The translations under genes were made by a program, and so were the position numbers. The notes beneath the pieces are model-generated. The model was given only the letters and a program-made list of their open reading frames with translations, was not told where the DNA came from and made no database searches. A stretch of DNA of 64,000 nt from an uncultured Acidobacteriota bacterium (GTDB taxonomy: Bacteria > Acidobacteriota > Terriglobia > Terriglobales > Acidobacteriaceae). Where the stretch lies: positions 208,605 through 272,604 of the forward strand of contig CAWGBX010000005.1 of the NCBI GenBank assembly GCA_963820925.1, written 5' to 3'. Below, piece after piece: positions 20,698-64,000 of this stretch. How positions within the stretch are numbered: position 1 is the first letter of the stretch; each line of letters begins with the position of its first letter.

Positions 20698-20748
20698 CAA
20701 CTCGTTTGATCGGCCGAGAGATGTTCTTCCGAGGGTTCCTGCAGCCCC

Positions 20749-23700
20749 TCAGTCGGCGGCCATACCTTGAGCTTCCTGCTCGACCTGCCCGCGAAGCTGC
20801 TCTTCCAAGGCGGCCAATTGCGCCTCGATCTCCTCGTTTGCCTTTCGCTTCTTGATGACCTCCTCGCGGTAGCGGCGCAGGAAGTAATCGATTGTCTCCA
20901 CGCGGATCCTTATCGAGCCAGTGGGCTTGTTCTCGTCCAGATCTTTGAAGCAGAAGTAAGGCGTGCCCGACTGCTCGATGATGCCTTCGACTACTCCGTA
21001 GATGGGCGCGTCGTGGCCACACTTGAAACTCGAGACTTCCAGAGCGACCAGGTTCGGGTGGCGGGCGGTGAACTTCGCCGCCCAGACCTTGTGGTTGGTA
21101 CTGCAAGAGTATGAATTCTTCCAGGCATCGGTAATATCGAGCGGGTGGCTGATAACTCCCGCGCGAACCTCATCACCGAACAGGCGTTCCAGCAAATCTT
21201 CATCGAGTGGCAGGGTGTTCTGCGAGAAGATGGGATAGCCGAGCTTCTGGAACTCTTCCATGATTTCGTGATTCAGTCCCGGATCATGATGATAAGGGCG
21301 GCCCAGCATCACGATGCCGATGCGATCTTCCCGCTCCAACTGGTCGAGCACCTGGCGCGCGCGTCCGCGAATACTGGCCTCGTAGTCGGCCAGCGCCTTG
21401 TAGCCAACTTCGACCGCGCGATCGTTCTCTTCCAGGGACAATCCCAGGATCGGCTGCCAGGCCTGCAGCATTTGATGGGCGAACAGCTTGCGGTCGGCGA
21501 AGTTCAGGATGGGATCGACGTACTTCACATTGTGCTCAGCAAAAACGTCGTTTTCCTTGGTGAACGCTGCTTTCACGGTCTCGGGGGTCGCTGTCACAGT
21601 CGGGCAAGCGTTCGCGCCAACAATCTTCACCAGCGGAGATGTCAGCACGTCGTACATGGGGAAGAAAATGACGTCCAGGGGCTTTTTCCGATGCTTTTCC
21701 TGGATCAGGTTATACACGTGCGAAATACCGATCTTCGCAGGGAAGCAGGGGTCAATCGCGCCGCGGCTGGCGCCAGCACGGTACAGTTCCGAACTGGTGT
21801 AGTCCGAGTAAATGATGTTCTCCGGCTGCACGCCCAAGCTCTCAAGATATCCGTTGAAGAGCGGCGCATAGGTGTAGATGTTCAGCAGGCGCGGAATGCC
21901 GACGCGAAGCTTCTTGCGATTCTCCATGAGAGGCACGCGCTCTTTTGCCGACTTGTTCCAGAATTTCGTTACCGGGACGGGATCGGCCACGCTCTTCGGG
22001 TTAACCGGCCGGAAGACTTCACGGGCAGCAAAGTCCACAAAGTTTGGGTATTTGTCTTTGATCTGATCGATACCCGCTTTGATGTCCTTCATATCGTTGA
22101 CATCTTCGACCAGGCCTTTTTCGCAGGTTGCGATGATCAATCGCTGCTCGCCATGCATCAACGGAACTTTCGTGACCTTCTGAATCGGAACGAAGCTCAG
22201 GTCATCCTTGGGAACAGTTCGGATGTCAATGAACGTGCGCAAGCAATTGTTCTTGCAGAAATTGCAGCGCGTGCTCTCGTTGCGCGTGGTGCGGTATTCG
22301 ATTTTCCGCACGGCCTCCAGTCCGACAAACGTGGTCTGCTGGCCATTGCGCCACAAGCGGACAGACTCAACCGCAGCCCCGATGGCTCCGGACTCGCCGC
22401 AGAATTCGTGGACAATGATCTCCGGTTTCTTGCCAGCCGCACGGAAGCTGTTCTGGATGAAATCGACTTCTGCCTTGACTACTGCCATGTTGTTCTGAGT
22501 CCCACCCTGCAGGACGAAGCGCGTGCCCAAGGCCGCGAGATTAGGAATGCTGGCCACGTACAAGAACACATTCTTCGGAAGCACAGCCGCCAGGCCTGCC
22601 AGAATTTCCTCCGCCCGCCAGCCCTGACGCTGGAAATTTACGATGTCCGATTGCATGAAAACGGCACAGCCGTAGCCGAAAACCGGCATCGATTGAGCTG
22701 AGAAAGCCAGATCGGCGTATTGTTCCACACTCAGCCCAAAGCCTTCAGCGGTCGACTGCAAGAAATAGCCATTTCCCGCCGAGCATTGCGTATTGAGTTT
22801 GAAGTCTTTGACCCGACCGTTATGCAGGATGATGATTTTGATATCCTGCCCGCCAACGTCGACGATGACGTGGGGATCCTCGTAAAACTTGAGGGCTGAT
22901 TCCGTGTGAGCGACAGTCTCGACCAAGCGCGACGTCCGCATGCAAGACGTCTTTCAGAATATCCTTTGCATAGCCCGTAGTGGCGACTCCCAAGACTTCC
23001 AGCTTCGCCTTTTGCGCTTCCACCTGGCCGCGCAAGTTCTCGAACATTTCAATCGTGTCCTGGATCGGGTTCCCGTTCGAGAGTTGGTAGGACTTACAGA
23101 GAATGTCGCCATTCTCGTCGAGCAGCACGGCTTTGGTGGAAGTGGAGCCACCATCGATGCCGATAAATCCGCCAATCGTCTTGTGGGCGGAGAAGGTCGC
23201 CGGAACAAACTTCTTGCGGCGGTACTCGACCTTGAAGTCGTCCAACTCTTTTTCGCCGGCGGTCAGACCCTTGGCGCCAGCCTTGGCCTTTTCTTCCTGG
23301 CGTCCAAAGTCGATGTAGTGCAGGAGCTTTTCGTATCCCTGATAGCAGCCAACGCAGTCTTCTTCGCTCTTGCCGAATTCAATCGCACCCAGGGCGGCGA
23401 AGTACTGCGCGTTTTGCGGGACTTTGATGAGTTCGTCCGGTTTTGCGCCATCAGGAATCGTGACTTTGCGCTCTTGCCACATGCGAGGGATATTCGCCTG
23501 CCAGGCTTCGCGCATGCCCTTGATGAAGCTGTTCGGACCACCCAGCAACAAAACGTGCGGTCGCAGGGTGTGGCCGCGCGTCAAAACGCTGAGATTCTGC
23601 AGCACGATCGCCTCAAATAGCGAAGCCATCAACTCATCTGGTGGCGTTCCCACTTTCTGCAGACTGTTGATGTCGGTCTCGGCGAACACGCCGCACTTGC

Positions 23701-24313
23701 CGGCGACCTTGTGCAGCTTGATCCCGTGGTAGCCCTGCAGGGCAAGCTCGGCAACTGGAATCTTCAGCTTGGCGTTGATCTTGTCGATGACGGCGCCAGT
23801 GCCGCCTGCGCACTTATCATTCATCGACGGAATTTTCTTCTTGCGCCCCGTCTCATCGTCGTCCTTAAACACGATGATCTTCGCGTCCTGTCCACCTAAC
23901 TCGATCACCGAATACACTTCGGGGTGCATCTTCTCGACCGCCAGCGAAACCGCCGTGACTTCCTGCACGAACTTGGCGCCAATTTGATCGGCGATCCCTC
24001 CGCCACCGGAGCCGGTCATGAACATCCGCGTGTTGTGGCGATTGATGCCTACTTCCTTTTCGATGCGGCGCAGAAACTCCAGCGTCTTCTCTGGTTGCTT
24101 GGTTTCATGGCGCTGGTAGTCTTGCCACAAAGCCTTGTCCGTGGCTGCGTCCACCACAACGGCTTTGACCGTGGTCGAGCCAACATCGAGTCCGACCATG
24201 AATTCGGTGTGGTGATCGTGCGGCCGTTGTGCGGGCGCGGGAGCTATCTGAAATAGTTCTGGCTTTGGTTGGTGGCCAAGATGGTCGTGCATCATCTCTC
24301 CAGTCAGTGGCAA
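20749..24313 (-). pseudogene. Fused CoA-substrate-specific enzyme activase (2x BadF/BadG/BcrA/BcrD ATPase) + 2-hydroxyacyl-CoA dehydratase (HgdB/D-component-like) domain; reading frame broken by 1-nt indel near 22923
   Basis: Track ORFs 22820-24313 and 20749-22941 overlap in different frames; the second ATPase domain (IGIDGGSTSTKAVLL...HADVA | LVETVAHTESAL...VDVGGQDIKII) runs across the junction. Removing one G from ttGGtc restores ADVALVETVAHTE. Confidence 0.7.
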
Positions 24314-24387
24314 GAAGCGTTTTGACTATGGTGACCGCCATCTTGCTGCAAGAAAAATTGCAAGCAAGATGGCGGTCGCTACCACGA

Positions 24388-26172
24388 TTACGCGGCGTTT
24401 GGCACAGCGATTCCAGGAACTCGTGCACGCTTCCACAGCCGTGTGCTCTTATCCATGCGATCGCTCACGTGCAGCACGAACTGGGCTGCCGTTCCCGTAA
24501 CGCCTTCACGATGCGGGACATGATAGAAGGGCCGGCGCAACTCCGGATGCTCGGCAATGTATTCCCTGATTTCCTCCATGCTCTTGCCGGTGGATTTCAG
24601 ACATTGCTCGAATTCGGTCTTGGCCTTCACCTTGGCTTCGCCCAACGCCATCTGCACCCGGCTGTGGGCGTTGACCTCGCCCTCGCCCGAAGTTTCAATA
24701 GGCAGGAAGATCATCTCTTTGAACTTGTTGATCACGGCTGACTGGACGCCATCCGATTGCGACGAAGGCATGCAGCCGAAGGGCTTGAGCGCCAAGACCA
24801 TATGGCAAAGACGATGCACAGTGTAGTAAACGTTCTTGCCCACCTCGAGGTGGCCTTCTCCGCCGCGCGCAAACTGGTTGTAGAAGGGGTGGGCCATTTC
24901 GGCCAAGTCGGTTTGCGGCACGAGGTGATGGGTGATGCCCCCAAGGTTCTTGATCGTCCGGTGATAGAAGAAATTCCACATGCGCTCGCCCGCGCCAATT
25001 CCCCATAATTTTTTGCGCAAGCCGAAGTAATTGCCCATTTGCTTCTGCAGTTCGTACCATTCGGGATTGCGATGCGGACGGTTCGCTGGCCACTTCGCCT
25101 TGGCGTGGGCCTTGGCCTGATACATCAAATACGCCACCCAAGTCGCAATCGGCTCCACCACAACCTGCGCGCCTTCACGCTCGAGGAAATCGAACATGTG
25201 GAAGTTGCCATCGCCTTCGGTAATCTGCGCCCAGAATTCGCCTGTGATCTTCACCACCGGCTTCACCTTGGTACGGTCGACCTCGATGCGGTTCATCTTG
25301 TCGCGCGCAGCAGCCAGAGCGTTGAGATAATCTTTCCCCCACATGTGCTCGTGCCACTTGCCGAAGACATTAAAGGTGTTTCTGAGAACCTTGTTGCTCT
25401 TGAACTTGGGTTTCGCCCATTCCGGAGCCCGTTCCTCGATCTCGAATGAATCGCGGTTCCGCAGGTCCTCGCACAATTCGTCGACCGCTTCGTGAAACAC
25501 GCGATTCGTCTCGCCTTTATTTACTTCGAAGGGACGGACCTGATAGATCAAGTCGTTAATCACATCGCCCAAGTGCATGGCGTTCAGCATGCCGAAGCCG
25601 AAGTCGATGGTGAACTTCAGTCCGGGCTCGCCCGATGCGGCTTTAATGCCGTCGCTGTCCTTGAACAGGAGCACGCGGAAGCCATCGAATCCGGCATTTT
25701 TCAAGGCGAATCGGTACTCGGCTTCATACATGCCAAACCGGCAGGGACCGCAGGAACCAGCGGTAAAGAAGACGTACTTATCCAGAATGTCCTGGCGGGA
25801 GATGCCCTCCTTCTCCAGGAATTGCAGATACTGCACCAGGTTGCCGACGGTGAAATAAGTGGGGTTGCACTGGCCATTATTCCCGTATTCCTTGCCGATC
25901 TGGAATGCAGGAACGTCGGGCACCGGCAACTTCTCGCAGCGATAGCCGCAGCCCTGGAACACAGCCCGGATCAAATCCTCGTGCTTCCAGGTAAAGCCTC
26001 CGAAGAGAATCGTGACCTTGTTACGCTCTTCGGCCGTGAAAGCTCTTTCCACCGGCCGGTGGAAATGATCGGGCTGATCCAACCCTGCGATCTTGCGCAA
26101 CCTGGCGCGTTCCGCCGCCAGCCGCTCTTTGATTTCCTGGTCGTTTTCAATGTGAATAAGATTCGTCGCCAT
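24388..26172 (-). CDS. Acyl-CoA dehydratase/activase-associated protein (DUF2229-like partner of the fused activase)
   Basis: 594 aa immediately upstream (same strand) of the activase fusion; no ATPase motifs; assignment by context and vague family resemblance. Confidence 0.4.
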   Translation of the reverse strand: MATNLIHIENDQEIKERLAAERARLRKIAGLDQPDHFHRPVERAFTAEERNKVTILFGGFTWKHEDLIRAVFQGCGYRCEKLPVPDVPAFQIGKEYGNNGQCNPTYFTVGNLVQYLQFLEKEGISRQDILDKYVFFTAGSCGPCRFGMYEAEYRFALKNAGFDGFRVLLFKDSDGIKAASGEPGLKFTIDFGFGMLNAMHLGDVINDLIYQVRPFEVNKGETNRVFHEAVDELCEDLRNRDSFEIEERAPEWAKPKFKSNKVLRNTFNVFGKWHEHMWGKDYLNALAAARDKMNRIEVDRTKVKPVVKITGEFWAQITEGDGNFHMFDFLEREGAQVVVEPIATWVAYLMYQAKAHAKAKWPANRPHRNPEWYELQKQMGNYFGLRKKLWGIGAGERMWNFFYHRTIKNLGGITHHLVPQTDLAEMAHPFYNQFARGGEGHLEVGKNVYYTVHRLCHMVLALKPFGCMPSSQSDGVQSAVINKFKEMIFLPIETSGEGEVNAHSRVQMALGEAKVKAKTEFEQCLKSTGKSMEEIREYIAEHPELRRPFYHVPHREGVTGTAAQFVLHVSDRMDKSTRLWKRARVPGIAVPNAA

Positions 26173-26644
26173 TATCTTCCTCCGGCGTGTGCAGTCTTAT
26201 AACAGCTTGATGGGATAGGACGAACGGCGGGACCGCCATCCGCGAAAGCCACAGCAGGACAGAGCGCAGGTTTCACCTGAGGCTTGCACTCGGGGCGAGT
26301 GTGGAGCACATCGGGCCTGCGAACAAAACGCACCGGAAACTCCTCACAGCTCGGGACAAGGAGGTTCGAGTTTTACGCCGACGAGACCGTCTGAATAATT
26401 CTCGCGGGCGCCTGACAAGAGCGATACTACAGGTTTCCCAACTGCATCAACACGAGGCGCATCATGCACCTCTTTCCTCTCGGCCAAGCTACGCGAAGCT
26501 GCCACCCACTTCCTGGAATCTCGGGGCAGCTCATTTCAGGACCCCACCTGACAGCTCTCACTCTGTTTATAGCAAAAACTCGGGTGGTGCTTCAAGGTCG
26601 ACCAGTCAGGCTTGACCGAAATTCTTCTTAGGCCCCGCCGGGAG

Positions 26645-27040: not shown

Positions 27041-27082
27041 AAATATCTCCTCATTGTCTCCGATTTCAATCCCACGGAACCT

Positions 27083-31114: not shown

Positions 31115-31934
31115 TCAGCTCGTCTTCGCCTTCCCGGGAGGAGCCAACGCGACGGCAGCCTCGGTGGTGAGCAGGAGGAAAGTGAACGTCTCCTGCAGGT
31201 ACAGGCGGACAGCCGTATCGGTGTGGCTGAGGTAGCCGATGGAGACGTCCTGGCCGATGTGCAGGTCGAAATCGCCGCCACGAGTGGTCAGCACGAAAGC
31301 GCCGGCAATGGCGGGCGCCCAGATGATTTGATCGTTGACCAGCCGCTTGACGTGCTCCAGCACCGGGTATCCGTGGTCGCTGGTCTCGGCGAGTGCGGTG
31401 TAAGCGTCGGCGCCGAGCAGCACCGAGTAGGGGCCGTTGACACCGACGAGACGTAAGCTGGCTCAAGCCTTGCGCAATGGCTTCCGGATACTCGCGCACG
31501 TCGGCGGGGAGCGTCATGATTGGATTGCTGGTTCCCTGACGGATACCCCCGATGCCGGCGGCGGCATAGCCCTCAAATATGGCGCCGTCCTCGGCAAAGG
31601 CGATCTGTCGCGCGGCGTCCTTCGCCGGTTGCCAGTCTGAGTCGTTCGCGCCACGATCGACATCGTCGATCGCCTGGCGATCCAGCTCGAACGGAACGCG
31701 CAGCTCGACCAGCGCCTTCACCTCGCGCTGTCTTGCGACGATGCCCTTCGCCGGGGCCGCGATCGTCCGCAGGTGGCCGGTGCCGACGGCAGAAAGGCCG
31801 CTGCCGGCCGGCCCCTTCACGTCGACGACGCGCCGTCCGGCAAGATAGCGCTTGAGCGTGCGCGATGTTTCCTCTTCGATCTGAGCCCATGCCGAATCGG
31901 AAATGGGGGCAAGTTCGCGATGGAGGTTATTCAT
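31115..31934 (-). pseudogene. Family 1 encapsulin shell protein (linocin M18-like), frame broken by 1-nt indel near 31454-31456
   Basis: MNNLHRELAPISDSAWAQIEEETSRTLKRYLAGRRVVDV... matches the Mycobacterium Cfp29-type encapsulin from memory; C-terminal half (LLGADAYTALAETSDHGYPVLEHVKRLV...GGDFDLHIGQD...LYLQETFTF) is in another frame. Deleting one A restores ...AQGLSQLRLVGVNGPYSVLLGADAYT. Confidence 0.8.
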
Positions 31935-33008
31935 GTCGGATGTCTCCTTTGAGGGAACCGATGCCGAGCGAACCCTCGCGCACCGATGCGATGGATGGAG
32001 TGGGATCAGCCGGCGCCGCGCGAGGGATCCGCTCCGTCGGTCAGCGGTCTCCAGAAACGTAGCCGATGGCACGAAGAACAGGTTCCCGGTGACAGCGCGG
32101 CTGAAGTCGAGCAGACGGTCGTAGTTGCCGGGCGGGCGACCGATGAACATGTTCTCGAGCATCTGCTCGATGGTGCGCGGCGAACGGCTGTAGCCGATGA
32201 AATAGGTGCCAAATTCACCTTGCGCAGGACGCCCGAAGGGCATGTTGTCGCGCAGGATCTTGATCTCTTTCCCGTTCTCGACGATGGTCGTGAGCGCGTT
32301 GTGCGCCGAGGTTGGCTTGACGGAATCGTCCAATTCGATGTCGGACAGCTTGGTGCGGCCGATGATGCGTTCTTGCGCCTCGGTGGAGAGCGCATTCCAT
32401 GCCTCAAGGTCGTGGAGATATTTCTGCACGATGACGTAGCTGCCGCGCGGCAAAACGCAGCGTCCTCGTCGCCGATGAGCACGGCATCGATCGCCGCCGC
32501 CCCCCTGGGGTTTTCCGTCCCGTCGACGAAGCCCATGAGATCGCGGTCGTCGAAGTAACGGAAGCCGTGCACTTCGTCCACCGGCGAAACGGCATTTCCG
32601 ATGCGCGCCATGATCTGCGTGGCCAGCTCGAAGCAAAGATCCATGCGCTTCGGCGCGGATGTGGAACAGCAAGTCGCCTGGCGTCGAGACCGCGTGGCGC
32701 GCTCCGGCGCGAATCTCCCGGAATGGATGCAGTTCTGCCGGTCGGGGCGGCCCGAAGAGGCGGTCCCACGCGTCGGACCCAAACCCCATGACGCAGGAAA
32801 GTCCCCCTTCAAGATCGCGAAATTCCACCGCGCGCACCAGCGCGGCGAGGTCTCCGCAGAACGAGCGCACGGTGGCGCGATCGTCAACGCCTGGCTTGAG
32901 CGTCACGACCAGGAAGATCGCGGCGCGGGTAAGCGGCGCGGCTATCGGCTGAGCGAGGGCAGGCAAGCCACCTGCCGCTGGGGGCGCGCTCATCGGACTC
33001 GGCTCCAT
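31927..33008 (-). pseudogene. DyP-type (dye-decolorizing) peroxidase encapsulin cargo with C-terminal targeting peptide; 3 frame disruptions
   Basis: N-terminal AIFLVVTLKPG...LLFHIRAE in frame 1, middle LCFELATQIMARIGNAVSPVDEVHGFRYFDDRDLMGFVDGTENP in frame 2, then GSYVIVQKYLHDLEAWNAL...GEFGTYFIGYSR...NLFFVPSATFL in frame 1. A third frame ends ...EGSLGIGSLKGDIRHE* with the TAA overlapping the encapsulin ATG (cATGAATAA). Confidence 0.8.
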
Positions 33009-46339: not shown

Positions 46340-47120
46340 ATGAGGGCCGTGGTTGGAGGGGTGTTTTCTTACGGATTAAGCTTCAGCAAGCTTCTCACCT
46401 CGGGAGCGGTGTTGGCCCTGCTGCTGGTGCAGACGACGCCTTGTAACGCCGCCTTAAGCGCCAGTTCCACCGACCAATCTCAAGCTATTGCGCTTGACAG
46501 CCGAGTCCGCGCCGTCATTGCAGATCCGACTACAGGACCGCTTCCCAATAGTTCCACAAAGTCACAAACATCACCACCTCCAACCTATCGCGAGCCGCGG
46601 TTTTCCGTCGGAGTTCGCGGTGGACTGAGTCTCGGTGAGCATGACCTGAAACTCACCACCAATCGGTTCCCGAACTACTACGCGGGAGCACATGGACAGT
46701 TTCGCATGGGCGAGTCGCATTTCCTGAGACCGGTGGGTGAATGGTGGAACTTCCGTACCGGCGTGCAAAGATTTCAAAACCCCACCCAGATTCAGACAAT
46801 CAACACTCAGGTTCGGGCCATGGTGGCTGGCGGCGAATATCTCTATCTCCTGGGCGGGCCATTCAAGAGAACCTCTCTCGGCTTCGGTGGATATGTCGGC
46901 GCGGTGGTCCGTGGATAGTGTGAATACGGTGACATTCTTCGGGTTGGGCACCGTCCAGGCTTCTGGAAACAGCCACTGGACGCGACCCGCAGGAAGCGCG
47001 ATCGCTACCTGTCGCCTCTCGCATCGGTTCGAACTGATGGGCCGATGGGTCTACAGCACCTACGGTTTTGAACGGGTCCCGGTCAGCGTCGTCACGTTCG
47101 GGGCAGGGTGGAACTTTTAA
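46340..47120 (+). pseudogene. Outer-membrane beta-barrel protein (signal peptide; C-terminal ...FGAGWNF), frame broken near 46900
   Basis: Track ORFs 46250-46918 and 46737-47120 overlap in different frames; the second ends with the typical OMP C-terminal aromatic (F) and stops 1 nt before the giant gene ATG. Confidence 0.5.
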
Positions 47121-50100
47121 ATGGCGCGGGGACAGCCAAATGTGCAGCAATCCGAATGTCAGGCCTCACCGCGAAATCTATTCATCGCGTTTGGTAGTGC
47201 GACGTGCGTTTTGTTTGCGCTGCTGCTCACTGGATGCGCTGCTTTCCAAAGCGGAGACCACACCGACAAGAATAACTATGCGCTGAAGATCACGCCCGCG
47301 ACCCCGGTTGTGACGGTGGGGCGCACTATTCATCTCACCGCAAGCAGTCCGTGGGGCGGTGGCGCGCACTGGTCTGTACTTCCAGCCTCTCTAGGAGCCA
47401 TCGATCAAAACGGCAACTTCACCGCCTCCAACACGCCCGGCTCCGGCACGATCATCGCGATGTGGGACCGGGACGTTCGCTATACCGCCACTGCAACAAC
47501 GACGGTTGTCGCGGTGCCCCAGGCAAGCATCACGGTGGTAGCACCGGTTGGCAACACGCCGGGAAACGCATCCGTTCCTCCCAGCCTGATTCCGCCTACG
47601 TGTGGACCATCCAGGGCGGCACCATCCTTTCCGGCCAGGGCACGTCGCAGATTCAATTTGCCGATTCCGGCCCCGGTGCCACTCTAGTGAACTGTACCGT
47701 GACGGACGGCGCCGGCGACACCACTACCAATTCGGCCACGGTTCCTGCCACAATCGAGTACAACCCAACTTCTTACACTCTTATTCGCGGCGCCGACATT
47801 GGGAACATTGCGCCCACACGTGCTGACGCTAACGCCCTGATGTGGCGAGTATCGCCTGATTTGCCTGTGGGCCTCGTGCTCAATGCAAGTACGGGCGTGA
47901 TCAGCGGCGCTCCCGCATCGCCGGCGCCAGCTGCCGCTTACACGGTGACAGCCAGCAACACAGGCGGTGACAGGTCACGCCGTGGCGCTCGCGATTACCG
48001 TGATCGATTCGGCGCCAATCTTTTCCTACATCCCCAATGCCTACATCGGGACGGTTAACGTTCCGGTCACACCCATATCGCCGACGCTGACCCACGGCAC
48101 GGTGACTTTGTGGAAAATCAGTCCTTCTTTGCCCGCCGGCCTGGTGTTTGATTCCGCGACGGGCCAGGTCTCAGGCGCGTCTCGCGTCCTCAGTCCGAAT
48201 ACGACATACACGGTGACAGCGAGCAACAATTGGGGATCGGTCACTGCGGAACCGCTGTCCATTGACGTCATCGACGTTCCTCCGGCGATTCACTATGCTC
48301 CATCTGCCTTCACTTTGACGAGGGGGACCGCTGTATCGCCGATAGTTCCCGCCAACTCTGGTGGTCCAGCAACTTCCTGGTCGATCGCGCCACCACTCAC
48401 CGCAGGGTTGACCTTCAACCTAGCGACCGGCTCGATCTCTGGAAATCCAAGCACGATCACGGCCGCAGTTTCGTATTCCGTCACGGCAACGAACACCGGG
48501 GGAACAAGCCCTCCAACCAGCCTCAATATCAACGTGGTTGACATCGTTCCCGCGATTCAGTATCCCTCGGCAAACTTTGCCATCACCATCAACTCAGCAT
48601 TGCTACCATTCTTGCCCACAAACTCTGGCGGGCCGGCGACGAGTTGGAGCATTCAGCCGGCGATTCCCTCCGGCCTCAGCTTTGATCCCGCAACCGGAGC
48701 CATCAGCGGAGTCCCGGATACAGCAACCCCGGCTGCTCTCTACATCGTCACGGCGACGAACACTGGCGGCACGAGCCAGCCCTTTACTATCACATTGGCC
48801 GTCGTAGTTCGGCCGACTTCGTCGATCAGCGCGTCTTCGACCAATCCGCTGAGGGGAGCAACGGTCGATCTGACGCCAACGTTTGCCAACGCCGTCTCGG
48901 CCACGGTGGGGACAACGCAAGGCGGCAGCGACATCTCCAGTTCGCCGACGACCGGAACAGCAATTCCAACCGCCGCCATTACCGCAACCAAAACCTACTG
49001 GCTGCGGGCGACGAACGGCGCGGGAGATTTCGTAGACGGTTCCGTTACGGTGACGCCGCAGACCGTTACAATTAATGGCATCAGCCCGGCTGCACCTACC
49101 CGCACAGTCAACAGCACGAGTAGCTTCACCACAACGGCCACAGGCGGAGTAACCAACGGCATCTCATGGTCCGCCAACGCCGGCTCCATGAACGCCGCCA
49201 CCGGAGCGTGGACTGCTCCCGGCAGCGCGGGCAATGTCATCATCACCGCCACCTCGAATGATGACAGCGGCAAAACCGCCACGACCCTGGTGAACGTCGT
49301 GGCAGCCGCGAGTGCATCGATCAGCGCCTCCTCGACCAATCCGCTCTATGGCGCGACGATCAACCTGACACCGACATTCAGCAACGCGGTCTCTGCCTCG
49401 GTCGGAACGACGCTGGGCGGCAATGACATCTCCAGTTCGCCCACAAGCGGCACCGCAATCCCCACCGCAGCCATCACCTCACCCCGGACTTACTGGCTGC
49501 GCGCGACCAATGCTGCCGGCGACTACATTGACAGCTCCGTCACAGTGACGCCAAAGACAGTCGTGGTGGGCGCAATTACTCCAGGCGCGCCCACACGCAC
49601 CGTCAACAGCTCGACCACCTTCAGCGCCAGCGCCACGGACGGTGTGACCAATAGCGTTACCTGGTCAGCCAGCGCGGGCACCATGAATGCCAGCACCGGG
49701 GTCTGGACTGCTCCCGCCACTGCGGGCAATGTCACCATCACGGCGACATCGAGTGATGACGGCAGCAAAACAGCGACGACCACCGCAAGCGTGGTCCTGG
49801 CCAGCACAGCCTCGATCACCGCCTCGTCAACTAGTCCGCCCCACGGCGCAACGGTTAATCTGGCGCCAACGTTTGGCAACGCAGTTTCAGCTTCGGTAGG
49901 GACAACGCAGGGCGGAAGCGACATTTCCGCGTCCCCGACCAGCGGAACGCAGATCCCGACCTCAGCCATCGTATCCGTCAAAACCTACTGGCTACGCGCC
50001 ACCAACGCTGCCGGAGACTACACCGACAGTTCCGTCACGGTCACACCGCAGACGGTCGTAGTGAATGCCATCAGCCCGGCCGCGCCCACACGCACCGTCG

Positions 50101-53100: not shown

Positions 53101-56100
53101 CGACGACCAGCGGCGGACACTTGGGAACAGTCACCTGGACTGCAAGTGGAGGCGCGATCAATGGCAGCACGGGAACATGGACCGCGCCCGGCACCTCGGG
53201 CAGCGTCACGATTACCGCGACTTCGAACGACGACGCCAGCAAGAAGGCCACCACCACAGTCACCGTGGTGCTCGCGCCCACGGCTTCGATCACTGCTTCA
53301 ACCAGCGCGCCGCTTTACGGCGCGACGGTGAATCTGACGCCGACATTCGCCAACTCTGTCTCGGCCTCGGTCGGCACCACGCAAGGCGGCAGCGACATCT
53401 CCAATTCACCGACGAGCGGCACGCCGATCACCACCAGTGCAATCACTTCGGCCATTACTTACTACCTGCGCGCAACCAATGCGGCGGGAACCTACGCAGA
53501 TAGTTCAGTCGTGGTGACACCGCAGACGGTGGCGATCGGGTCCATCACCAAGGGGCAGAGCACGGTCAGCGTGGGCTATACCACGACCGCCCAAGCAACC
53601 GTCACGAATGCGGTTGATACAGCCGTCAATTGGAGTTCCAGTTGCGGCTCTTTCAGTCCCGGCAGCACCGCGAGCGGAGTGAATACCACATGGACCGCAC
53701 CGGTATCGGCGCAGACGTGCACGCTTACCGCAACCAGCAACGCCAATCCGGCCCTGACCATTAATGCGACCATTACGATTGTCGCTTTGCCGGTTGCGAC
53801 CGGCCTCTCGCCGAGCACTACTAGTCCGCTATTCGGCGCCCCCATCAATTTGACGCCACAGTTCTCGAATGGCACCGGCGCGGTCGACCAAGGCATCGGG
53901 GCGGTCACCAATAACGTCAGCAAGTCTTCTTCGGCAATCACTACACCGGTAACATTCACTCTGACGGTTACAAACGCGGCCGGTCAGACCACCACTGCAA
54001 CCTCGGGCTTAATCACGCCGCAGACTGTCGCGGTGACCGTGCCCTCGCCCGCCGCAGGTTATGTAACGACCAGCGGCACGCAGGCTTTCACCGCCTCTGC
54101 GCAAAATGCGGTCAACACCGCCGTCACCTGGAGCGCGGCCGGGGCAGGCTCATGGTCTGGCGCTACCTGGACCGCGCCATCAACTCTAGGCGTATACACA
54201 ATCACGGCAACCTCGGTTTCGGATCCCACAAAGTCAACTTCCACCAGCGTGAACGTCGTCATTGCGCCGGTCATCAGTTCTTTCACCGCGGCCGTTCTTC
54301 TTGTCAGCGAGAACTTTGGAACCACTTTGACGGGAGTTTTCACCAACGGAGGCGGAAACGCATTCGTCGGCACGAGCGGAGCTGGCAGTTCGGATATCAC
54401 AAATTCTGCCCAGTCGAACGTCGGTGTTCCTACCGGCAATCTCGCGGCGACCACCACATTCACTCTCACCGTCTATAACCTGGCAGGAAGCAGCACCTCG
54501 GCAACGCTTACAGTTCCGGTGGTCGTGGGTTCTTCCCTGGCGACAATTTCTGCTCTCCGGCGCGCGATATAACCACACCAGTACCTTGCTGCCGGATGGC
54601 ACCGACTTGATCATCGGCGGGCAGAGCGATAGTGGGTCGCTCAACACATCCGAGATTTACGACCCGGTGGCGGTAGCTGTTTCCGATGGCGGCACGATGC
54701 TCTCGGCGCGCTACAACCACACAGCTACTCTCATTACCCAATGGCACGGTCCTGAGTCGCCGGTGGCAACAACGGCGGGACCATTGCCGCCAGCGAAGTC
54801 TGGGATACCGGCGGCTTTGCCGCGACCGGTGCACTCAAGACGCCCCGCGAAAAGCACACAGCCACACTGCTGCAAAACGGACTGGTGCTGATCGTCGGAG
54901 GACTGAACGGAAGTTCTCCCGTAGTCTCGGCGGAACTGTACAGCCCGTTGACGGAGACATTCACCTACACGGCGGGCAATCTGAACACGGCTCGCTACAG
55001 CCACACCGCTACGCTACTCGCCAGCGGTCAAGTGCTCATTGCGGGCGGATACAACGGAAGCGTACCTCTGGCCAGCGCGGAGATCTATAACCCGGCCACG
55101 GGCGCATTCACGGTGGTTGGAAGCATGTCTACCGCCCGGCAGCGTCACGCCGCGGTCTTGCTGAATGACGGACGCGTCGCCATGGTTGGCGGCAAAGGCG
55201 CAAGCGCTCCACTGGCCAGCGCGGAAATCTTCAACTCTTCGAACAATACATTCAGCGCGACGGGCGCGATGGCCGATGCGCGCGACGGCCTGACTGCAAC
55301 GCTGACCACCAGCGGCAAAGTGATTGCGGCAGGCGGAGTGAATGCATCTGGCATTCCCATCGATGGCGCCGAGATGTTTGACCCGACCGCGGGAACGTTC
55401 AGCCTTACCGCGCTACTGTCCACTGCGCGCTCGCAACACACGGCAACGCTTCTACAGGACGGGCAAGTGCTGATCGCGGGAGGGTTGGTGCAGAGTGGCG
55501 CAACGGCGATCCAGGAACTGTTCGACCCGCAAGATGGTCTAACCCCCACGGTTCCGAACTCGACCATCACCGCTCCCGTAGGCGCGATCACGGCACAGAC
55601 CGGGCTCGCAGGAAGCGTACCGTCGCAGACGCACATTCAATATTTCTGGATGATCACCGGCGGCGCCATCAGCGCTGGTCAGGGAACGAGGTCTATCACA
55701 TTTTCAATGCCGGCCTCGGGCACCGCCACACTCGACGCGCTGGTGGTAAGCGATCGCATTATCCCCTCGCACACGCAGTTTGTGGTAACGCCGGTTCCGA
55801 TCATCTCCAGCTTTTCGGCGCAGAATCCCACCGTCACAGTAGGTGGAAGCACGACGCTGAATTGGACGGTGCAAGGTGCTACCAGTCTCTTCATTGACCA
55901 GGGTGTTGGGATGGTAGCTGGAACTTCTGTACCCGTCACGGTGGGCTCTTTGGGTACGACAACATATACGCTGACGGCCACGAATGCGGGCGGCAGTGCA
56001 ACCGCCACGGCGCTAATTCTTGCTGTGCCGCCTCCGATCGCGACATCCCTGACCGCCGCGGCGAGCACGGTGCCTGTGGGCGGCAACACCAACCTCACAC

Positions 56101-59100
56101 CGATCTTCCCCCAGGGCACGGGATCGATTTCTCCGGGCATTGGGGCAGTTTCGAGCGGCCCCGCCTATCCGACTGCGGCCATTTCTACGCCCACCACCTT
56201 TACTCTTACGGTGACCAATGCGGCCGGAGACACGGCGCAGCAATCCACCACAGTTGGATTGCAACCGGTCTCAGTCAGAATCTCGGGGCCGACCTATGTC
56301 ACCGAAGGCCACACCGCGACCTACTCTGCAACGGTTTCCGGATCGGTGAACACGGCCGTTACGTGGCACGCTTCGGCGGGAAGTTTCAGCGGCGCGAATT
56401 TTACCGCTCCCACCGGACCTCCGTACGATACGACCCAGACCGCCGTTACCATTACCGCGACATCGGTTAACGGTGGCACGGCGTCGAACTTTACCGTGCA
56501 GGTGGTACCGCTGCCCGTGATCACCAGCTTCGTGTCGAATCCGGTGACCGCAAACTACGGAGGCTCGACCACGATTACGCCGGTCTTCTCTCTGGGATCT
56601 GGCCAGATCGTCGGACTGGGTTCGGTGACCAGCGGCCAGGGAGTTTCAAGCGGCGGGCTGACCACGTCGAAGACATTTACGTTAACCGTGACCGATGTTG
56701 CCGGTGATTCTGTTTCACAGAATCTGAACGTCAATCAGAGCGCGGTTTCAGTCAGCACTCCGACACCCACGGCGAGCACCGTCTCGGTTGGCGACCAGGT
56801 GCATTTCACAGCCACCACGAACGGTTCCGCAAACAGCGCCGTCACCTGGAGCGCCACCGGCGGCAGCTTCTCCGGCAGCAACTGGACTGCACCATCAGCA
56901 GGCACGTACACCATTACCGCCAGTTCGGTTTCGCCATTAGGTTACTCCGCGAACACAACCACCACCGTGGTTAATTTGCCGGTAATCTCATCGTTCACGG
57001 CATCCCCAGTGGCACTTTCTGCGGGAGATAGCTCGAACCTGCAGGCCAATTATTCCGGGGGCACAGCAACCGTCATGCCGGGAAATACTTCGCCGGTGAG
57101 CGGTGTTCCCTTCTCCACCGGCTCGCTGGCCTCCACCACTACCTACACGCTAACCGTGGTGAGCGCAGCCGGAAAGAGCACCAACAAAACCGTCACCGTG
57201 AATGCGGTCCAGGGGAGGACGAATTCCGGGTCGAGCCTGAGTACCAACCGTGTAGGACACAGCGTGACGCTGCTGCCCGATGGCAGAGTCCTGATCGCAG
57301 GCGGAAGTTCGACGGCGAGCGCGGATATTTCCGATGTGACAGGTCAGAACATCAGCGCCATCGGTTCGGCAATGCAATCGGTTCGCTACTCTCACACCGC
57401 AACTTTGCTGGCGAACGGCCAGGTTCTGATCGCAGGCGGAGCAGACATCAACGGGACGGCGCAGAACACGGCGGAGCTGTTCAATCCATCGAACAATACG
57501 TTCACCTCAACCGGGTCGATGTCGAAGGCCCGGCAAAAACACTTTGCCGCGCTAATGGATGATGGAAGAGTGCTGCTCGCCGGAGGCGTCGATGACAATG
57601 GCACGGCGCTCTCGAGCGCCGAGATTTATGATCCCGTGGCAGGAACTTTCTCCGTCGCGCCGAGCCTGGCGGCAGCAAGCGAATCGGGCAGCACAACCCT
57701 GCTCGAAAACGGCACGGTGCTCGTGGCCGGAGGAGACAACACCAGCGCGGCCAGCGCCTCCGCTCAGACCTTCAACGGCGCAAGCTTCAGCGGCACGCTA
57801 TCCATGGCGGATGCGCGCTCGCAGTCCACGGCAACCCTGCTGCAAGGCGGGAACGTCATTTTCGCCGGCGGCACCGACCTGACCAATGCGCTGAACACAG
57901 TCGAAACATTCTCTGGCGGCAGTTTCTCCCAAAACCCGACAGCCATGTCGGAGGCGCGTTACGGTCACTCGGCGAATCTGCTCGCCAGCGGCCTGGTGCT
58001 TTTGACCGGTGGAAGTTCCGACGGCTCTACGCCACTGTCGGACGCGATGCTCTTCGATCCGTTCGATGCCTCGACTCCCTATTGGTCAACCAGCAGTCTC
58101 AACACCGCTCGCTTCGAGCCGGCATCAACCATTCTGCGCAATGGACATGTGCTGATCGCGGGCGGCAGCTCCGATCCCGCTAATATCTCTGCCAACGCTT
58201 TAAGCACGACTGAGAACTATGATCCGCAGGATAGTCTCACTCCGGTTCTGCCGAACGCAACACTCACCGCCCCTGCCGCCGCCGTTAATGGCGCATCTGG
58301 GCTGACCGCGTCCGTTCCAACGGGCCAGACCAACGTCCTCTATATATGGTCGTTGACTAACGGAACGATCACCGCCGGCTTGAACACTCGCTCCATCACC
58401 TTCACCGTGAACACAACTCCCGCGGTCGTGAATGTCCTGGTGATCAGCGACCGTGAAGTCCCGGTGCAGAGCTCGGCGACGATTGCTTCGGCCAATCCGG
58501 GGCCGTCGATTGCTTCTTTCACGGCGACTCCCTCCACCAACACAACTGGAGTGACAACGACTCTCGCCTGGTCCGCCAGCGGCGCTGCCGATATGACACT
58601 CACCATTAATCATGGTGTGGGCGATGTTACCGGCTCCAGTTCCACCCCGGTCACCACGCCGGCCAGCACCACCACTTACACGCTGACCGCGACCGACAGC
58701 AACGGCACCACCAACAAGACCGTAACTCTGACCGCGGTTCCCATGCCGGTTGCGACCAGTCTCACCGCCGCCGTGAACCCGGTGCTCAAGGGAAGCTCCA
58801 CCACCATCGTTCCGGTTTTCACCACCAACGGATCGGCGTCCATCAATAACGGAATCGGAACCGTCACCAGCGGAGTTGCCTACCCCACGGGCGTGCTGAA
58901 CACCGCCACCACATTCACGCTGACCGCGACCAACACGGTGGGCACCAGCGCCACCGCCAACGCGACCATCAACGTCATGCCGGTCGTGGTGACCTCGATT
59001 ACCGGGCCATCCAACGTCACGGTCAATAGCACCGAAGCGCAGTTCACTGCCACCGTAACGGGCGCGGTAAATACCGCAGTCACCTGGTCCGTCTCCGCGG

Positions 59101-62100
59101 GTTCCATTAATGCAGCCGGACAACTGACTGCGCCGTCCACGCCGCAAGACATCACGGTGACGGCTACTTCAATTGCAGATCCTGCGCAGTCCCATCAAGT
59201 GACGGTGCACGTGGTGCCGGTGGCGATCGCGCTCAGTATCACGGCAGCTGCCAACCCTGTGCTCTATGGAAGCTCGACCACAGTCACGCCTGTCTTCTCG
59301 CAAGGCAGCGGCGTCATTGATCAGGGGATTGGAAACGTGACCACGGGAGTGGCATACACAACCGGCACGATCACGGGCAGCAAGAGCTTTACGCTCACCG
59401 TGACCAACGTCTCCGGTGACAGCGCCGATGCAACGGTCACAGTGCTGCCGGCAGATGTGGTGGTTAGCGGCATCACCGGTCCCGCCTCAGGCAAGGTGAC
59501 GCAAGGCCACACAGCCACTTTCAGCGCCACCGTCAGCGGCGCGGTCAACACGTCTCTCACCTGGAGTTCGGGCGGCGCCGGCTCGTGGTCCGGCGCGACC
59601 TGGACGGCGCCCGGAACTCCCGGCAACTACACCATCACCGCGACTGCCGTAAATGGTTCAACCAACACTCTGCCAATCACGGTCGTTGCCGCTCCGGCGA
59701 TTGCATCATTCACCGCGACGCCGCCAGGCATCAACAAGAACCAGAGTTCTACTCTCACCGCGACCTTCTCCGGCGCGGGCACTGGCAGCAATTCCAGCGG
59801 CGTCGTCACTCCCGGCAATCTCACGCTGGCCAGCGGTTCAGGTGGCGTGAGCACCGGCGCGCTCACCGCATCGCAGACTTACACGCTGACGGTGACGAAT
59901 GACGCGGGTGACACTGCCACGGCGCAAACGACGGTGCAAGTTTTCCTCGGCGAGTTCAGCGCGGTTTCGAATAGCCTGGCAACGCCTCGCAATCTGCCCA
60001 CGGCAACTTTACGTGCAGACGGCAATGTGGTGGTCGCCGGCGGCGGAAGCGGAAGCGCGAGTGTTGACCTCTTCAACAGTACAAATCTTTCGTTCTCTTC
60101 AGCGACTCCACAGCTGACCGGGCGAAACGGACAGACGGCGACACTGTTGCCCAATGGCCTCATCCTCATCGCCGGGGGTTCGAACGGCTCGACTGCGCTT
60201 GCGACAGCGGAACTTTACAATCCGGCTGACGGCAGTTTCACCGCAACTGGATCGCTCGCACATGCGCGGCAGAATCATCGCGCGATCCTGCTCGACTCAG
60301 GCCAGGTGCTGCTTGTCGGAGGCACTGGCCTTGCGAGCGCCGAACTTTACAATCCTGCAACCAGGACCTTCTCGTCCACAAATTCCATGGCATGGGTGCG
60401 TGACTCCGCGACCGTTTCGCGTCTGCTCGATGGCCGCATTCTCGTGGCCGGGGGAAGCAACGGCAGCACGCGTCTGGCTACGGCCGAAATCTACGATCCT
60501 TCCACAAATTCGTTTTCTACAGCCGCTACCATGCTCGCGGCGCGCGCGCTGCACACGGCCACGACGCTCACTAGCGGACAGATTCTGATCGCCGGCGGCA
60601 CCGGCTCCACGGGAAGTGGAAGCGCAGAGATTTTCAATCCTTCGCTCATGCGCTTCGTAAGCACAGGAAATATGATCCAGCCGCGTCAGGAACACGTTGC
60701 CGCATTGCTGGCGGGTGGAATGGTGCTGGTGGCGGGTGGAAACAATGGCACGTCTTCCAGCGCCAGCGACCAGGCTGAACTCTTTGATCCGGCAGGCGGC
60801 GCCTTCCAGAAGTCCGATTTTATGAGTTCGGTTGGTTCGCCCACCACCGGAGCCGCGGGTACGATTCTCCCCAGCGGGCAAGTGCTCGTGACCGGCGGCA
60901 CCAGCGATGGCACGAATGCTGTCGCAGGATCGGAGTTGTACACGCCGACTGACGGAATCACCGCAGCCGCGGCGAATGCAGCGATCACGGTTGCGGCGTA
61001 CGTCTCTCAGGGAGCCACAGGCATCTCCGCACACGTGACCGCCGCAGCCGGCGCGCGCTACATCTGGATGGTCACCGGCGGCACTCTGGTCTCCGGACAA
61101 GGCACCGCCAGCATCACCTTTAATATGCCGGCGACCGGCAATGCCACCCTGGATGTTTTGATCATCACGAGCACACTTGTTCCTTCTCATGGACTGTCGG
61201 TCGTAGTGGGAGAACCGGCGCCGGTAGTCAGCAGTTTCACGGCGGCGCCAAGTCCGGTTGCTTATGGCAGCCCGACCACACTCACGCCAGTATTCAGCAA
61301 CGCGACGGCGAGCGCCGTCATCGGCACCGGCGCCGCCGGCAGTTCCGATGTAACCCCCGCGGCGGTCAGCGGCACTCCAGTCGTGGCAGGCTCAATTACC
61401 AGCGCAACCCAGTACCGGCTCACAGTCACAAATCGCGCTGGTGTAAGTCTCAATCAGACAGTCACAGTCGGCGTGCAGAGCGTGATCGTCTCCGCAATCA
61501 GCCCCGCCAATCCGGTCCTATCTGCGGAGGGCACGCAGAGCTTCAGCTCTGCTGTCAGTCAGGCTGCCAACACCGCAATCGTATGGAGCGCCAACGGCGG
61601 CGTGATGAATGCCGCGACGGGAGCATGGACCGCCCCACCGACGCCCGGGCCCTACACCATTACCGCCACTGCGGCGGCGGATGGCATTACTTCATCGTCG
61701 ACGACGGCGACCGTAGTTGCATTGCCAGTCGTCCAGAGCTTCACTGCCTCGGCGGCCACGGTGAACTATGGGCAGGTATCTTCGTTAACTGCGGTGTTCA
61801 CTGGGGGCGTGGGAAATCAGGCATCGATAGGGACGAGCGGCACGGGTTCATCGCAGCTGACGTCCACTGCGACCAGCAGCAACGCCGTCTCCACCGGACC
61901 GTTAGTCGTCGATACCACTTTTACCCTTACCGTCACAAATGCGGCTGGGTCATCTACCACCGCGACAGTTCAGGTCTCGGTGAACCAGCCGTTCTCATCG
62001 ACTGTCTCGATGAACTATGCCCGATTGGGTCAAACGACCACCGTCCTTCCAGGCGGCGCTGTCCTGGTCGCTGGCGGAACGGGAGGTACCGACCCGGCTG

Positions 62101-62639
62101 AACTCTATAGCAACGGCAGCTTCGCTACGACTGTGGGACCGATGACGGCGGCGCGCGCTTATCACACTGCCACGCTGCTCGCCAGCGGACAAGTGCTTTT
62201 CGCCGGCGGTGTGGATGCCTCCGGGAACGCCCAAAACACAGCCGAGCTTTACGATCCAACTCTCGGCACTTTCACTGCGACCGCGGGAAATATGGTCCGT
62301 GCGCGTCAAGATCAGGTTGCGGCTCTCCTGCCGGATGGAACCGTCCTGATCGCTGGCGGCTACAACGCAACCAATCAGCAACTCTCTGATGCCGAGATTT
62401 TCAATCCCATTACCGGCACATTCGACAGCAACGCCAACATCTGTTGCCACGGCGCGCCAGTTTGCCACAGCGACCGCACTGCAAGACGGCCGCGTTCTGA
62501 TCGCAGGCGGATTCAACGGCACAACGCATCGGCAACTGCGCAGATTTTTTGCCAATGGCAGCTTCGTCACCCCCGAGATGCCAAAAGATCCATTTCATAC
62601 GACACAAACTTGTTTAGTGAATCCGTGAATTTACAGTGA
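47121..62639 (+). pseudogene. Giant (~5,100 aa if contiguous) cell-surface lipoprotein: lipobox, tandem Ig-like (He_PIG/BIG-like) repeats, then Kelch/beta-propeller-like repeat region; split by 8 or more single-nt frame disruptions
   Basis: Lipobox LLLTGCAAF at start. Track ORFs 47121-47687, 47351-48058, 47967-54572, 54424-54891, 54885-62639 and 62389-62628 carry consecutive pieces of the same repeat protein in different frames. Removing two A residues at ~54727 and ~54757 gives contiguous ARYNHTATLLPNGTVLVAGGNNGGTIAASEVWDTGGF. Confidence 0.7.
48830..53330 (+). repeat. About nine tandem, highly similar ~486-498-bp (about 163-aa) coding repeats inside the giant gene (unit ...ASSTNPLYGATVNLTPTF.NAVSASVGTTQGG.DISSSPTSGT.IPTAAIT..KTYWLRATNAAGD..DSSVTVTPQTVVVN.I.PA.PTRTVNS.TTF.TTATGGVTN.I.WSA.AG.MNA.TG.WTAPA.AGNVTITATS.DD..KTATT.V.VVLA)
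   Basis: Landmark tcga-tca(c/g)cgc recurs at 48836, 49321, 49816, 50311, 50803, 51294, ~51790, 52288, 53288; minus-strand shadow ORFs repeat with the same period. Confidence 0.8.
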
Positions 62640-63013
62640 AACACACATTTTTTCGAGACAGGACGATATTCCCACCGTGAAAAACACGTCTCCCATAAAA
62701 GCCGCAGAGTGCTGGCGAGAACGGCAAGACTCTAACGGGCAGTGTTCTAGACCGATTTAAGATCTTTGCAGGAAACCGATCTCTCTGCCCCGCGGGGTAC
62801 ATATACTGTTTGCGAAAGTCATCTTCGGGAGCAATAAGGAGTCTCAAGGATCGTTAGGTTATGAGCCCACAAATACTATTATTTTCAACAACTTACAAGA
62901 CGCGGGTGGCCCCTTAAAAACCTTGCAAGAAGCGCTAAGGAATCCTTATTGGACAGTTAAAGGACAGTGAACAACCGCACCGTGAACCTTGAGGCTGCAG
63001 ATCGAAAATTGTT

Positions 63014-63988
63014 TTAGCGTTCGTCTACGGGCGAAGCTTTCGGCACCGCCGGCAAGGGCTCGCCCGCCAGTCGTTTTTTCACCAGCCCGGCGAGGAAGTC
63101 CGCGAAGGGCACGATATCCTCGCCGACACTCGCTTTTTCGAGAGCGTTCACGTAGGCGTTGCGGTCGGTTACCGGAATGACCGTCCACGGGTATCCGCCC
63201 GACGCCATCATGGTGTTCATCAGGAAGCGCCCGACGCGGCCGTTGCCATCCATATAAGGATGGATGTAGACGAAGATGAAGTGCCCGAGCACCACGCGGA
63301 CGGCCGGATGCGGCTCTTCGCGCAGCAGGTCGAAGAACGCCGGCATGGCGTCCCTCACCGCGTCCCGGTTCAGCGGCACGTGCATCGACTTGCGGATATA
63401 GACCTGGCCGTTGCGATAGCCCGCGAGATCGGCGGGCTTCAGCAGGCCGACGGTGACGCTCGGCGCGAACAGCTCTCGATACCACGTGCCGTGGTCCGCG
63501 TCCGCGACCTCTCCCGGATTTTCGCCCTTCAGAATTTTGCCGAGGCTTTTCTGCACGGCCTGAAAGGCCTGCCAGTAGCCCCGCGCCGCCATCGCGTTTC
63601 GCTGATCGCGGTCGCCCTCGTCGGCTTCCGGGTTCCACCTACCCCCACGGACGCGCTCGATAAGGTCCGGCGTCACCCGGTAGCCCTCGATCGACAGCGA
63701 ATGGTAGGCGTCCGTGACGTAGGCGTCGTTGACGCGCTTGAGGTACGCCTCGATGTTGCGCGGCGGGCCCGGCGCTTTCGGGAAGCGTTCGATGACCGGC
63801 TCGCGCATTTTCTGCCAGAGCAGCCGCAGCCTGTTTACGTAAGGAGAGGTTTCGCGGGCTCCGATGACCAGGGACGGCTTGTCCGTGAAGGGATCGTTCT
63901 CCCGCACGGCGTAGTCGGCCGCCGCCATCGTCTTCACGATATCGTCCGCGATGCGGTCGAGGCCGATGTTGCGGAAGGCCCCGGCCAA
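63014..63988 (-). CDS. Fic/DOC family protein (AMPylase-type fold)
   Basis: Fic motif HPYMDGNGRVGRF (HPFx[DE]GNGR); 324 aa; the overlapping Arg-rich ORF 62946-63638 is a shadow frame. Confidence 0.8.
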   Translation of the reverse strand: MAGAFRNIGLDRIADDIVKTMAAADYAVRENDPFTDKPSLVIGARETSPYVNRLRLLWQKMREPVIERFPKAPGPPRNIEAYLKRVNDAYVTDAYHSLSIEGYRVTPDLIERVRGGRWNPEADEGDRDQRNAMAARGYWQAFQAVQKSLGKILKGENPGEVADADHGTWYRELFAPSVTVGLLKPADLAGYRNGQVYIRKSMHVPLNRDAVRDAMPAFFDLLREEPHPAVRVVLGHFIFVYIHPYMDGNGRVGRFLMNTMMASGGYPWTVIPVTDRNAYVNALEKASVGEDIVPFADFLAGLVKKRLAGEPLPAVPKASPVDER

Positions 63989-64000
63989 GCGTCCGGCGAT

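Follow-up and report, generated by a model that had tools for sequence, protein, structure and literature searches.

Within one 64,000-nucleotide stretch of DNA (hereafter the window) from an uncultured Acidobacteriota bacterium of the family Acidobacteriaceae (GenBank assembly GCA_963820925.1, contig CAWGBX010000005.1, positions 208,605 to 272,604), an uninterrupted [NiFe]-hydrogenase gene island is followed by 43 kb in which many genes are split between reading frames. This raises the question of whether the latter genes are decaying whilst selection preserves the hydrogenase, or whether the breaks arose during sequencing and assembly. An earlier note, made from the sequence alone, had counted no frame disruption in the first 20.7 kb and 17 or more in the remainder, and had offered both explanations. 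Here, 18 single-nucleotide frame breaks were mapped between 22.9 and 62.6 kb, and we consider it highly probable (about 0.88) that they are residual base-calling or consensus errors of a Nanopore-only soil metagenome assembly and not mutations, and that the clean state of the island is not due to selection.

Frame breaks across the window

The hydrogenase island encodes a small-subunit paralogue, a PAS histidine kinase and a response regulator, and then the small and large subunits, accessory genes, a maturation protease, hypC, hypD and hypE, a SIS-domain gene, and hypF, hypA and hypB. The small subunit, large subunit, protease and HypA-F were all matched by NCBIfam models over their full length, and in comparisons with nine short-read relatives each open reading frame (ORF) aligned in a single frame over window positions 1090-19351. 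No frame break was found within 1-20.7 kb, in agreement with the earlier description of these genes as intact. The 43 kb beyond the island harbours a double BcrAD/BadFG activase, a series of small genes (DUF302, DUF202, hydrolase, pirin, YceI and MarR), a DyP peroxidase with an encapsulin, an AraC regulator, a methyltransferase followed by HlyD and AcrB, a DinB_2 piece, a PIG-L deacetylase, a YbaK-like gene, a putative outer-membrane protein, a giant lipoprotein of more than 5,000 codons with He_PIG and Kelch repeats, and a Fic gene.

Each gene that had been listed as broken proved to be so, with one break in each of the activase, encapsulin, DinB_2 and outer-membrane protein genes, two in the AraC regulator, four in the DyP gene and eight in the giant Kelch/He_PIG lipoprotein. 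The ybaK gene, possibly broken as well, was left out of this count. Codon-usage frame tracking performed well for ordinary genes and was unreliable in the compositionally odd giant gene, where it was replaced by homology; the eight events there were called by frameshift-aware protein-to-DNA alignment against homologues. The loci L001 and L002, used below for comparison, are from ENA assemblies with metaFlye-style contig names. The island and the mapped breaks are as follows.

84-20697, plus strand: [NiFe]-hydrogenase island, no frame break (NCBIfam matches, single-frame alignments).
22915-22935, minus strand: activase (two BcrAD_BadFG domains and DUF2229), +1 at ~22925, CTT[G]GTC (domain split and junction reading).
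31450-31460, minus strand: encapsulin (Linocin_M18), +1 at 31456, CAG[C]TTA (tblastn and DNA alignment).
32040-32050, minus strand: DyP linker, -1 deletion at ~32045 (frame -3 to frame -2 between 32049 and 32040).
32444-32455, minus strand: DyP, two +1 insertions 6 nt apart, at 32452 and 32446 (TTT to TTTT; GCCG[C]GCGG) (DNA alignment with L001 and L002).
32648-32654, minus strand: DyP, +1 at 32651, GCC[G]AAG (tblastn and DNA alignment).
36455-36470, minus strand: AraC regulator, +1 at ~36463, between Cupin_6 profile positions 157 and 158 (profile split; direction from ORF frame arithmetic).
36800-36815, minus strand: AraC regulator, +1 at ~36808, between Cupin_6 profile positions 44 and 46 (profile split).
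43530-43542, plus strand: DinB_2 domain gene, +1 at 43536, TCG[A]GCT (frameshift-aware alignment to homologue P0243, ~90% identity on both sides).
46890-46910, plus strand: putative outer-membrane beta-barrel protein, probable +1 at ~46900 (reading of two overlapping frames).
47575-47975, plus strand: giant gene, -1 at ~47581 and +1 at 47969 (GGT[G]ACA), the intervening 388 nt being out of frame (alignment to homologue P0126).
54548-54760, plus strand: giant gene, +1 at 54552 (TCT[G]CTC), 54733 (CTC[A]TTA) and 54755 (CTG[A]GTC), after which the original frame is regained (frameshift-aware alignment).
62420-62555, plus strand: giant gene, +1 at 62424 (TTC[G]ACA), -1 at ~62527 (CTGG to CGG) and +1 at ~62550 (T5 to T6) (three-frame reading against homologue P0122, and alignment).

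Character of the breaks

All 18 breaks took the form of a single-base indel with protein identity resuming in another frame, and the flanks were 88-93% identical to close homologues. Insertions of one base predominated (15, against three deletions; binomial P = 0.008). It had been noted earlier that some breaks were homopolymer-length differences, which held for three of the 18 (G to GG, T3 to T4 and T5 to T6) and not for the rest, these being isolated extra bases such as those in TCT[G]CTC, CTC[A]TTA, CTG[A]GTC, TTC[G]ACA and TCG[A]GCT. Within the segments aligned to homologues there were no in-frame nonsense codons (0 nonsense mutations versus 18 frameshifts), and no insertion sequence (IS) elements were found among the frame-broken genes. 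On two occasions, in DyP and at 54.55-54.76 kb, the frame was restored by three +1 events within ~200 nt. Genuine bacterial indels are associated with base runs, biased towards deletion and accompanied by nonsense mutations.

Relative to the sequences of relatives, read in the original frame, the out-of-frame stretches displayed synonymous to non-synonymous ratios of 11:3 and 24:9 (both in DyP), 12:5 and 22:8, and parts of the genes that remained in frame gave 21:4 and 28:3. Relaxed constraint was thus not seen in the original frame, either inside or downstream of the shifts, in a test that very recent events could escape.

Comparison with long-read and short-read relatives

Species-representative genomes were scanned with the large subunit, yielding 80 loci of up to 21.8 kb each, of which 48 were long-read loci of Microflora Danica (MFD), named in the form 'MFDxxxxx.bin ... 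contig_N', and 32 came from short-read or isolate genomes. The nearest relatives were such MFD records. Genomes of the Microflora Danica long-read catalogue were assembled by metaFlye from Nanopore reads only and then polished in one Medaka round (PMC12313526). The island proteins of the window served as probes for frame switches in these loci. One frame change that recurred at codon ~100 of the protease ORF was left out of the counts, since distant relatives, isolates among them, naturally have a gene boundary there. A total of 35 frame switches were detected in 609 kb of long-read sequence, within 13 of the 48 loci, and none in 319 kb from the 32 short-read and isolate loci (Fisher P about 0.001). 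The breaks therefore follow the sequencing technology and not biology.

The breaks in the sibling genomes resembled those of the window. Frameshift-aware alignment identified 31 of 36 as +1, mostly outside base runs, and they were clustered, with eight in 5 kb of locus L053 and seven in 3 kb of L018. They were concentrated in the SIS-domain gene and in hypD, hypE and hypF (28 in 162 kb), and the small and large subunit genes had none (0 in 185 kb). As hyp genes are equally indispensable, and are nevertheless broken in a quarter of the sibling long-read genomes, an intact island is no evidence of selection. Breaks also recurred within five codons of each other across independent genomes, in nine cross-locus pairs where 2.5 were expected (P = 0.001), and such recurrent +1 sites in the MFD genomes suggest a systematic, possibly methylation-related, consensus error mode.

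To give an example from the hypC-hypF parts of loci L004-L079, codon 91 of hypF was affected in both L017 (position 21020) and L018 (position 21503), each with an extra C just upstream of CGAATTCACC.

The majority of the long-read loci (35 of 48) were clean over the ~13 kb that was assessable. The DyP and encapsulin genes of loci L001 and L002 were also broken, at sites other than those of the window, although one such site lies within ~25 nt of a window break. Homologues of the DyP protein bore the name Candidatus Sulfotelmatobacter, and the relatives of the hydrogenase were from Terriglobia.

Uneven distribution of the breaks

The chance that all 18 events would miss positions 1-20700 was 9e-4 when calculated naively, and 0.009 when 12 clusters were taken as the units. 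A largest-gap test, which allows for a boundary chosen after looking at the data, gave 0.007 for events and 0.06 for clusters, and the 43-kb part itself also contained clean stretches of 6.6 to 8.6 kb. The unevenness is real, though modest for a clustered process.

A difference in sequence context was considered as its cause, the proposal being that the island contains fewer error-prone motifs and that the pattern is intrinsic to the DNA and independent of coverage. CGCG-containing contexts were enriched at break sites (17 of 54, versus 6.8 expected), the density of GCGCG was 3.8 per kb in the island versus 6.4 per kb elsewhere, and the sibling genomes, as described above, also displayed hot and cold genes. 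However, the motif covers only about a third of events and its density differs less than two-fold, so that it accounts for little of the unevenness, whilst hypD-F, a hot region in the siblings, are clean in the window. Homopolymer density could be ruled out as the cause, as the island has equal or more base runs than the rest. Context alone is therefore an unlikely explanation, albeit the least unlikely of those that compete with coverage-dependent consensus error.

Origin of the frame breaks

We propose that the window very probably belongs to a Terriglobia metagenome-assembled genome from the Microflora Danica long-read set, a set built from Nanopore reads only, with metaFlye and one round of Medaka. 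The errors of such a process would for the most part be single bases inserted spuriously outside homopolymers, somewhat enriched beside CGCG-rich sequence, and would be over-dispersed, falling in clusters of two to three within about 200 nt. As such a process is clustered, long clean stretches would be normal, and the hydrogenase island would be one of them, its cleaner state probably reflecting better local read depth or strain homogeneity; selection on the island would not be needed to produce the pattern. The activase, DyP and encapsulin, the AraC regulator and the other broken genes are then most likely intact in the organism. In several sites the idea also fits that each insertion could represent both alleles of a strain polymorphism, kept together in the consensus.

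Truncation of ORFs by indels in Nanopore metagenomes, the effect measured in the IDEEL test, is a known phenomenon in which single-base consensus indels split or fuse ORFs, and the sibling genomes came out of just such a pipeline (PMC12313526). How often truncation occurs varies with coverage and with the complexity of the sample, metaFlye assemblies of soil being the worst affected (PMC9262707, PMC13087279): for Nanopore R10.4 about 40x coverage is required for a near-finished consensus (PMC9262707), and when soil Nanopore reads were assembled with metaFlye, no more than 56.8% of the proteins reached 90% of the expected length (PMC13087279). The window and its siblings differ from the classic form, which comprises deletions in long homopolymers, in that their breaks are mostly +1 outside runs, clustered, partly CGCG-associated and prone to recur at the same codons. 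What was found belongs to a known class of artefact, its error signature being unusually clear and somewhat atypical.

Several points weigh against this conclusion. The non-homopolymer insertions differ from the textbook Nanopore error; the Nanopore origin of the contig was deduced from its relatives, from NCBI and ENA source tags and from the shared error signature; three JGI entries (P0028, P0038 and P0098) also show a DyP-encapsulin fusion of the sort that is here ascribed to error; and the two larger truncations described below, in the giant gene and the DinB_2 gene, may reflect real rearrangement of the accessory region.

The same truncations (the loss of ~900 codons from the giant gene and of the methyltransferase domain from the DinB_2 protein) are the residual support for the view that the accessory genes underwent recent pseudogenisation by frameshift whilst purifying selection kept the island intact, a view that also draws on the confinement of the breaks to non-island genes and on the accessory nature of a region in which the neighbours of DyP-encapsulin in L001 and L002 differ from those in the window. 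Pseudogene-rich reductive genomes, such as those of Mycobacterium leprae and Sodalis, likewise combine many frame-broken genes with an intact functional core. In those genomes, however, there are also nonsense mutations, deletions, an expansion of IS elements and a relaxation of constraint, none of which was seen for the frame-broken genes of the window. The insertion-biased, non-homopolymer spectrum is the opposite of that usual for bacterial indels; as many as four and eight breaks fall in single genes, some as frame-restoring triplets; and neither the same signature in hypC-F, seen in 13 of the 48 sibling genomes from long reads and in none of the 32 short-read or isolate genomes, nor the recurrence of breaks at identical codons in unrelated genomes is to be expected of decay. 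We regard pseudogenisation as very improbable, and its fullest form, in which a very recent insertion-biased burst inactivated DyP-encapsulin, AraC, the activase and the giant surface protein, the atmospheric-type hydrogenase island was kept by selection and the truncations belong to the same decay, as slightly more improbable still. Giant surface lipoproteins belong to a gene class that is often phase-variable, and eight breaks in one such gene might bring to mind programmed frameshifting or an on/off switch; nonetheless, no slippery heptamer, long homopolymer or simple-sequence repeat was present in the context of any break site, the longest base run in the giant gene was 6 nt, cytoplasmic enzymes and regulators were broken too, and the frames between breaks were not conserved as protein, leaving this explanation with hardly any probability.

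Of the alternatives posed in the earlier note, locally poor assembly quality is thus supported by the +1 non-run spectrum, the lack of nonsense mutations, the conservation of the original frame and the restriction of the signature to Nanopore-only relatives; decay of accessory genes beside a selected island was not supported as far as the frame breaks are concerned, hyp genes being hit in siblings. The biological significance of the breaks is accordingly small, the genes most likely being intact. Their practical significance is greater, since gene calling on this contig, and on the long-read soil genomes related to it, yields artificially split and fused proteins that have already entered public collections and risk being taken for new domain architectures or pseudogenes. 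The 661-aa 'DyP-encapsulin fusion' is one example, and homologues of the giant protein whose tails are out of frame are another. Since the errors cluster, favour insertion and strike the same codons repeatedly, the presence or absence of local frame breaks in such assemblies cannot be read as selection or decay.

DyP peroxidase and encapsulin

The intact DyP homologue P0056 and an intact encapsulin aligned to the window in alternating frames. In the encapsulin gene, tblastn alignments switched from frame -3 to frame -1 at 31455/31456, with 92-93% identity on either side, and DNA alignment with L001 and L002 revealed one base too many in the window. For DyP, where three breaks had been reported earlier, four were mapped: three +1 insertions and the -1 deletion in the linker. 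Between the insertion at 32651 and the two at ~32450, which together regain the original frame, ~65 codons are out of frame, including the conserved stretch FVDGTENP, which we take to be the GXXDG motif of DyP; the DNA of this stretch stays close to that of relatives.

As a result of the linker deletion, the peptide that targets DyP to the encapsulin (SLGIGSLKGD) falls out of frame, and the two genes are read as one artificial fusion ORF. In its true frame DyP retains SLGIGSLKGD and ends at a stop codon (31930) that overlaps the ATG of the encapsulin gene (31934), hence the 661-aa 'fusion' ORF (P0001) is a by-product. The arrangement is like that of family 1 encapsulins with DyP cargo, in that SLGIGSLKGD forms the end of the DyP of the window and the DyP gene runs into the start codon of the encapsulin gene (CATGAATAA, 31930-31936); the 661-aa ORF and similar sibling entries represent frame errors in the linker and no new fused architecture.

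Public protein collections were found to contain many 'DyP-encapsulin fusion' entries of 450-1000 aa from sibling long-read genomes (P0001-P0035; window 31930-32040 and 31124-31936). In the window, in L001 and in L002 these go back to frame errors within the linker of DyP, SLGIGSLKGD being intact in the other frame. The DyP homologues from JGI, which are mostly short-read, were nearly all 367-430 aa in length and lacked a fused encapsulin domain, whilst a few more distant fusion entries, JGI ones included (P0038, P0098 and P0054), might be genuine.

Activase, AraC regulator and outer-membrane protein

In the activase, one BcrAD_BadFG Pfam domain was split between the ORFs at 22820-24325 and 20749-22953, which cover domain positions 1-~88 and 89-269, respectively, and the protein sequence ending in HADVAL resumes as VETVAH in the next frame. 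The Cupin_6 profile of the AraC regulator was likewise cut across three frames, into positions 1-44, 46-157 and 158-183. The C-terminus of the outer-membrane protein (FGAGWNF) probably sits in the frame next to that of the preceding sequence; a homology search with a query that joined this protein to DinB_2 and YbaK brought up relatives of DinB_2 only.

Giant lipoprotein and DinB_2 truncations

The earlier claim of eight or more breaks, in clusters, in the giant gene was borne out by the eight events listed above. All ten homologues of the giant gene gave an off-frame signal, and did so only at the three break regions; between the latter two, positions 56280-62423 aligned in one frame to the JGI homologue P0122 over 6.1 kb, with a single one-codon gap. 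Several homologues carry tails whose match to the window lies solely in another frame, from which it follows that these proteins are themselves mistranslated.

Two further features stand apart, as single-base errors cannot explain them.

62585-63016, no strand assigned: end of homology of the giant gene at ~62590, a structural truncation and not a single-base event (homologue comparison).
43386-43914, plus strand: DinB_2 piece, corresponding to residues 284-456 (linker and C-terminal domain) of a widespread 456-aa methyltransferase-DinB_2 fusion family (tblastn, three-frame reading).

The homologues P0122 and P0123 run ~900 residues beyond the point at which homology ends in the giant gene, where an AT-richer spacer is followed by a Fic/DOC gene on the minus strand (63017-64000). 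For the DinB_2 piece, the N-terminal methyltransferase domain was absent upstream, where the AcrB gene ends at 43133. All of the best 120 homologues were at least 359 aa in length, and nearly all had both the methyltransferase and DinB_2 domains. The 3' truncation of the giant gene and the 5' truncation of DinB_2 may be real rearrangements of the accessory region or chimeric joins.

A stand-alone methyltransferase gene (37697-38518), 57-63% identical to the methyltransferase-DinB_2 family, is located 5 kb upstream, beyond the HlyD-AcrB pair. The possibility that HlyD-AcrB had divided a single gene into this methyltransferase and the DinB_2 piece was ruled out, since the identity of the methyltransferase to the family is 57-63% versus ~90% for the piece and no DinB_2 remnant follows the methyltransferase stop codon. 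Just upstream of the DinB_2 fragment, a GRSELLAD motif echoes the GRRAELLAD within it.

Other features of the hydrogenase island

The maturation protease is encoded by a 284-aa ORF (11721-12575) with an in-frame N-terminal extension of ~110 residues, which in more distant relatives, including isolates, is a separate gene in another frame. These two genes in different frames raised the suspicion of a hidden fusion error, which was ruled out as close short-read relatives share the single ORF; the N-terminal fusion seems to be real in the clade of the window.

A second small-subunit paralogue (367 aa) is encoded within window 1060-4479 without an adjacent large subunit and is directly followed by the PAS histidine kinase and NarL-type response regulator genes. 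The paralogue and the kinase and regulator genes were also matched in the loci of relatives; this module may be conserved across them and could be an H2- or redox-sensing unit.

The large subunit (6808-8604) was 85% identical to copies from Paraburkholderia, Burkholderia and Caballeronia, and to one on a 756-kb Tunturiibacter plasmid (L068, L070, L074, L076 and L077). Such identity across phyla points to horizontal spread of this hydrogenase type. Beyond the island, an ORF of 594-602 aa on the minus strand (24388-26196) had good coding statistics and no Pfam match.

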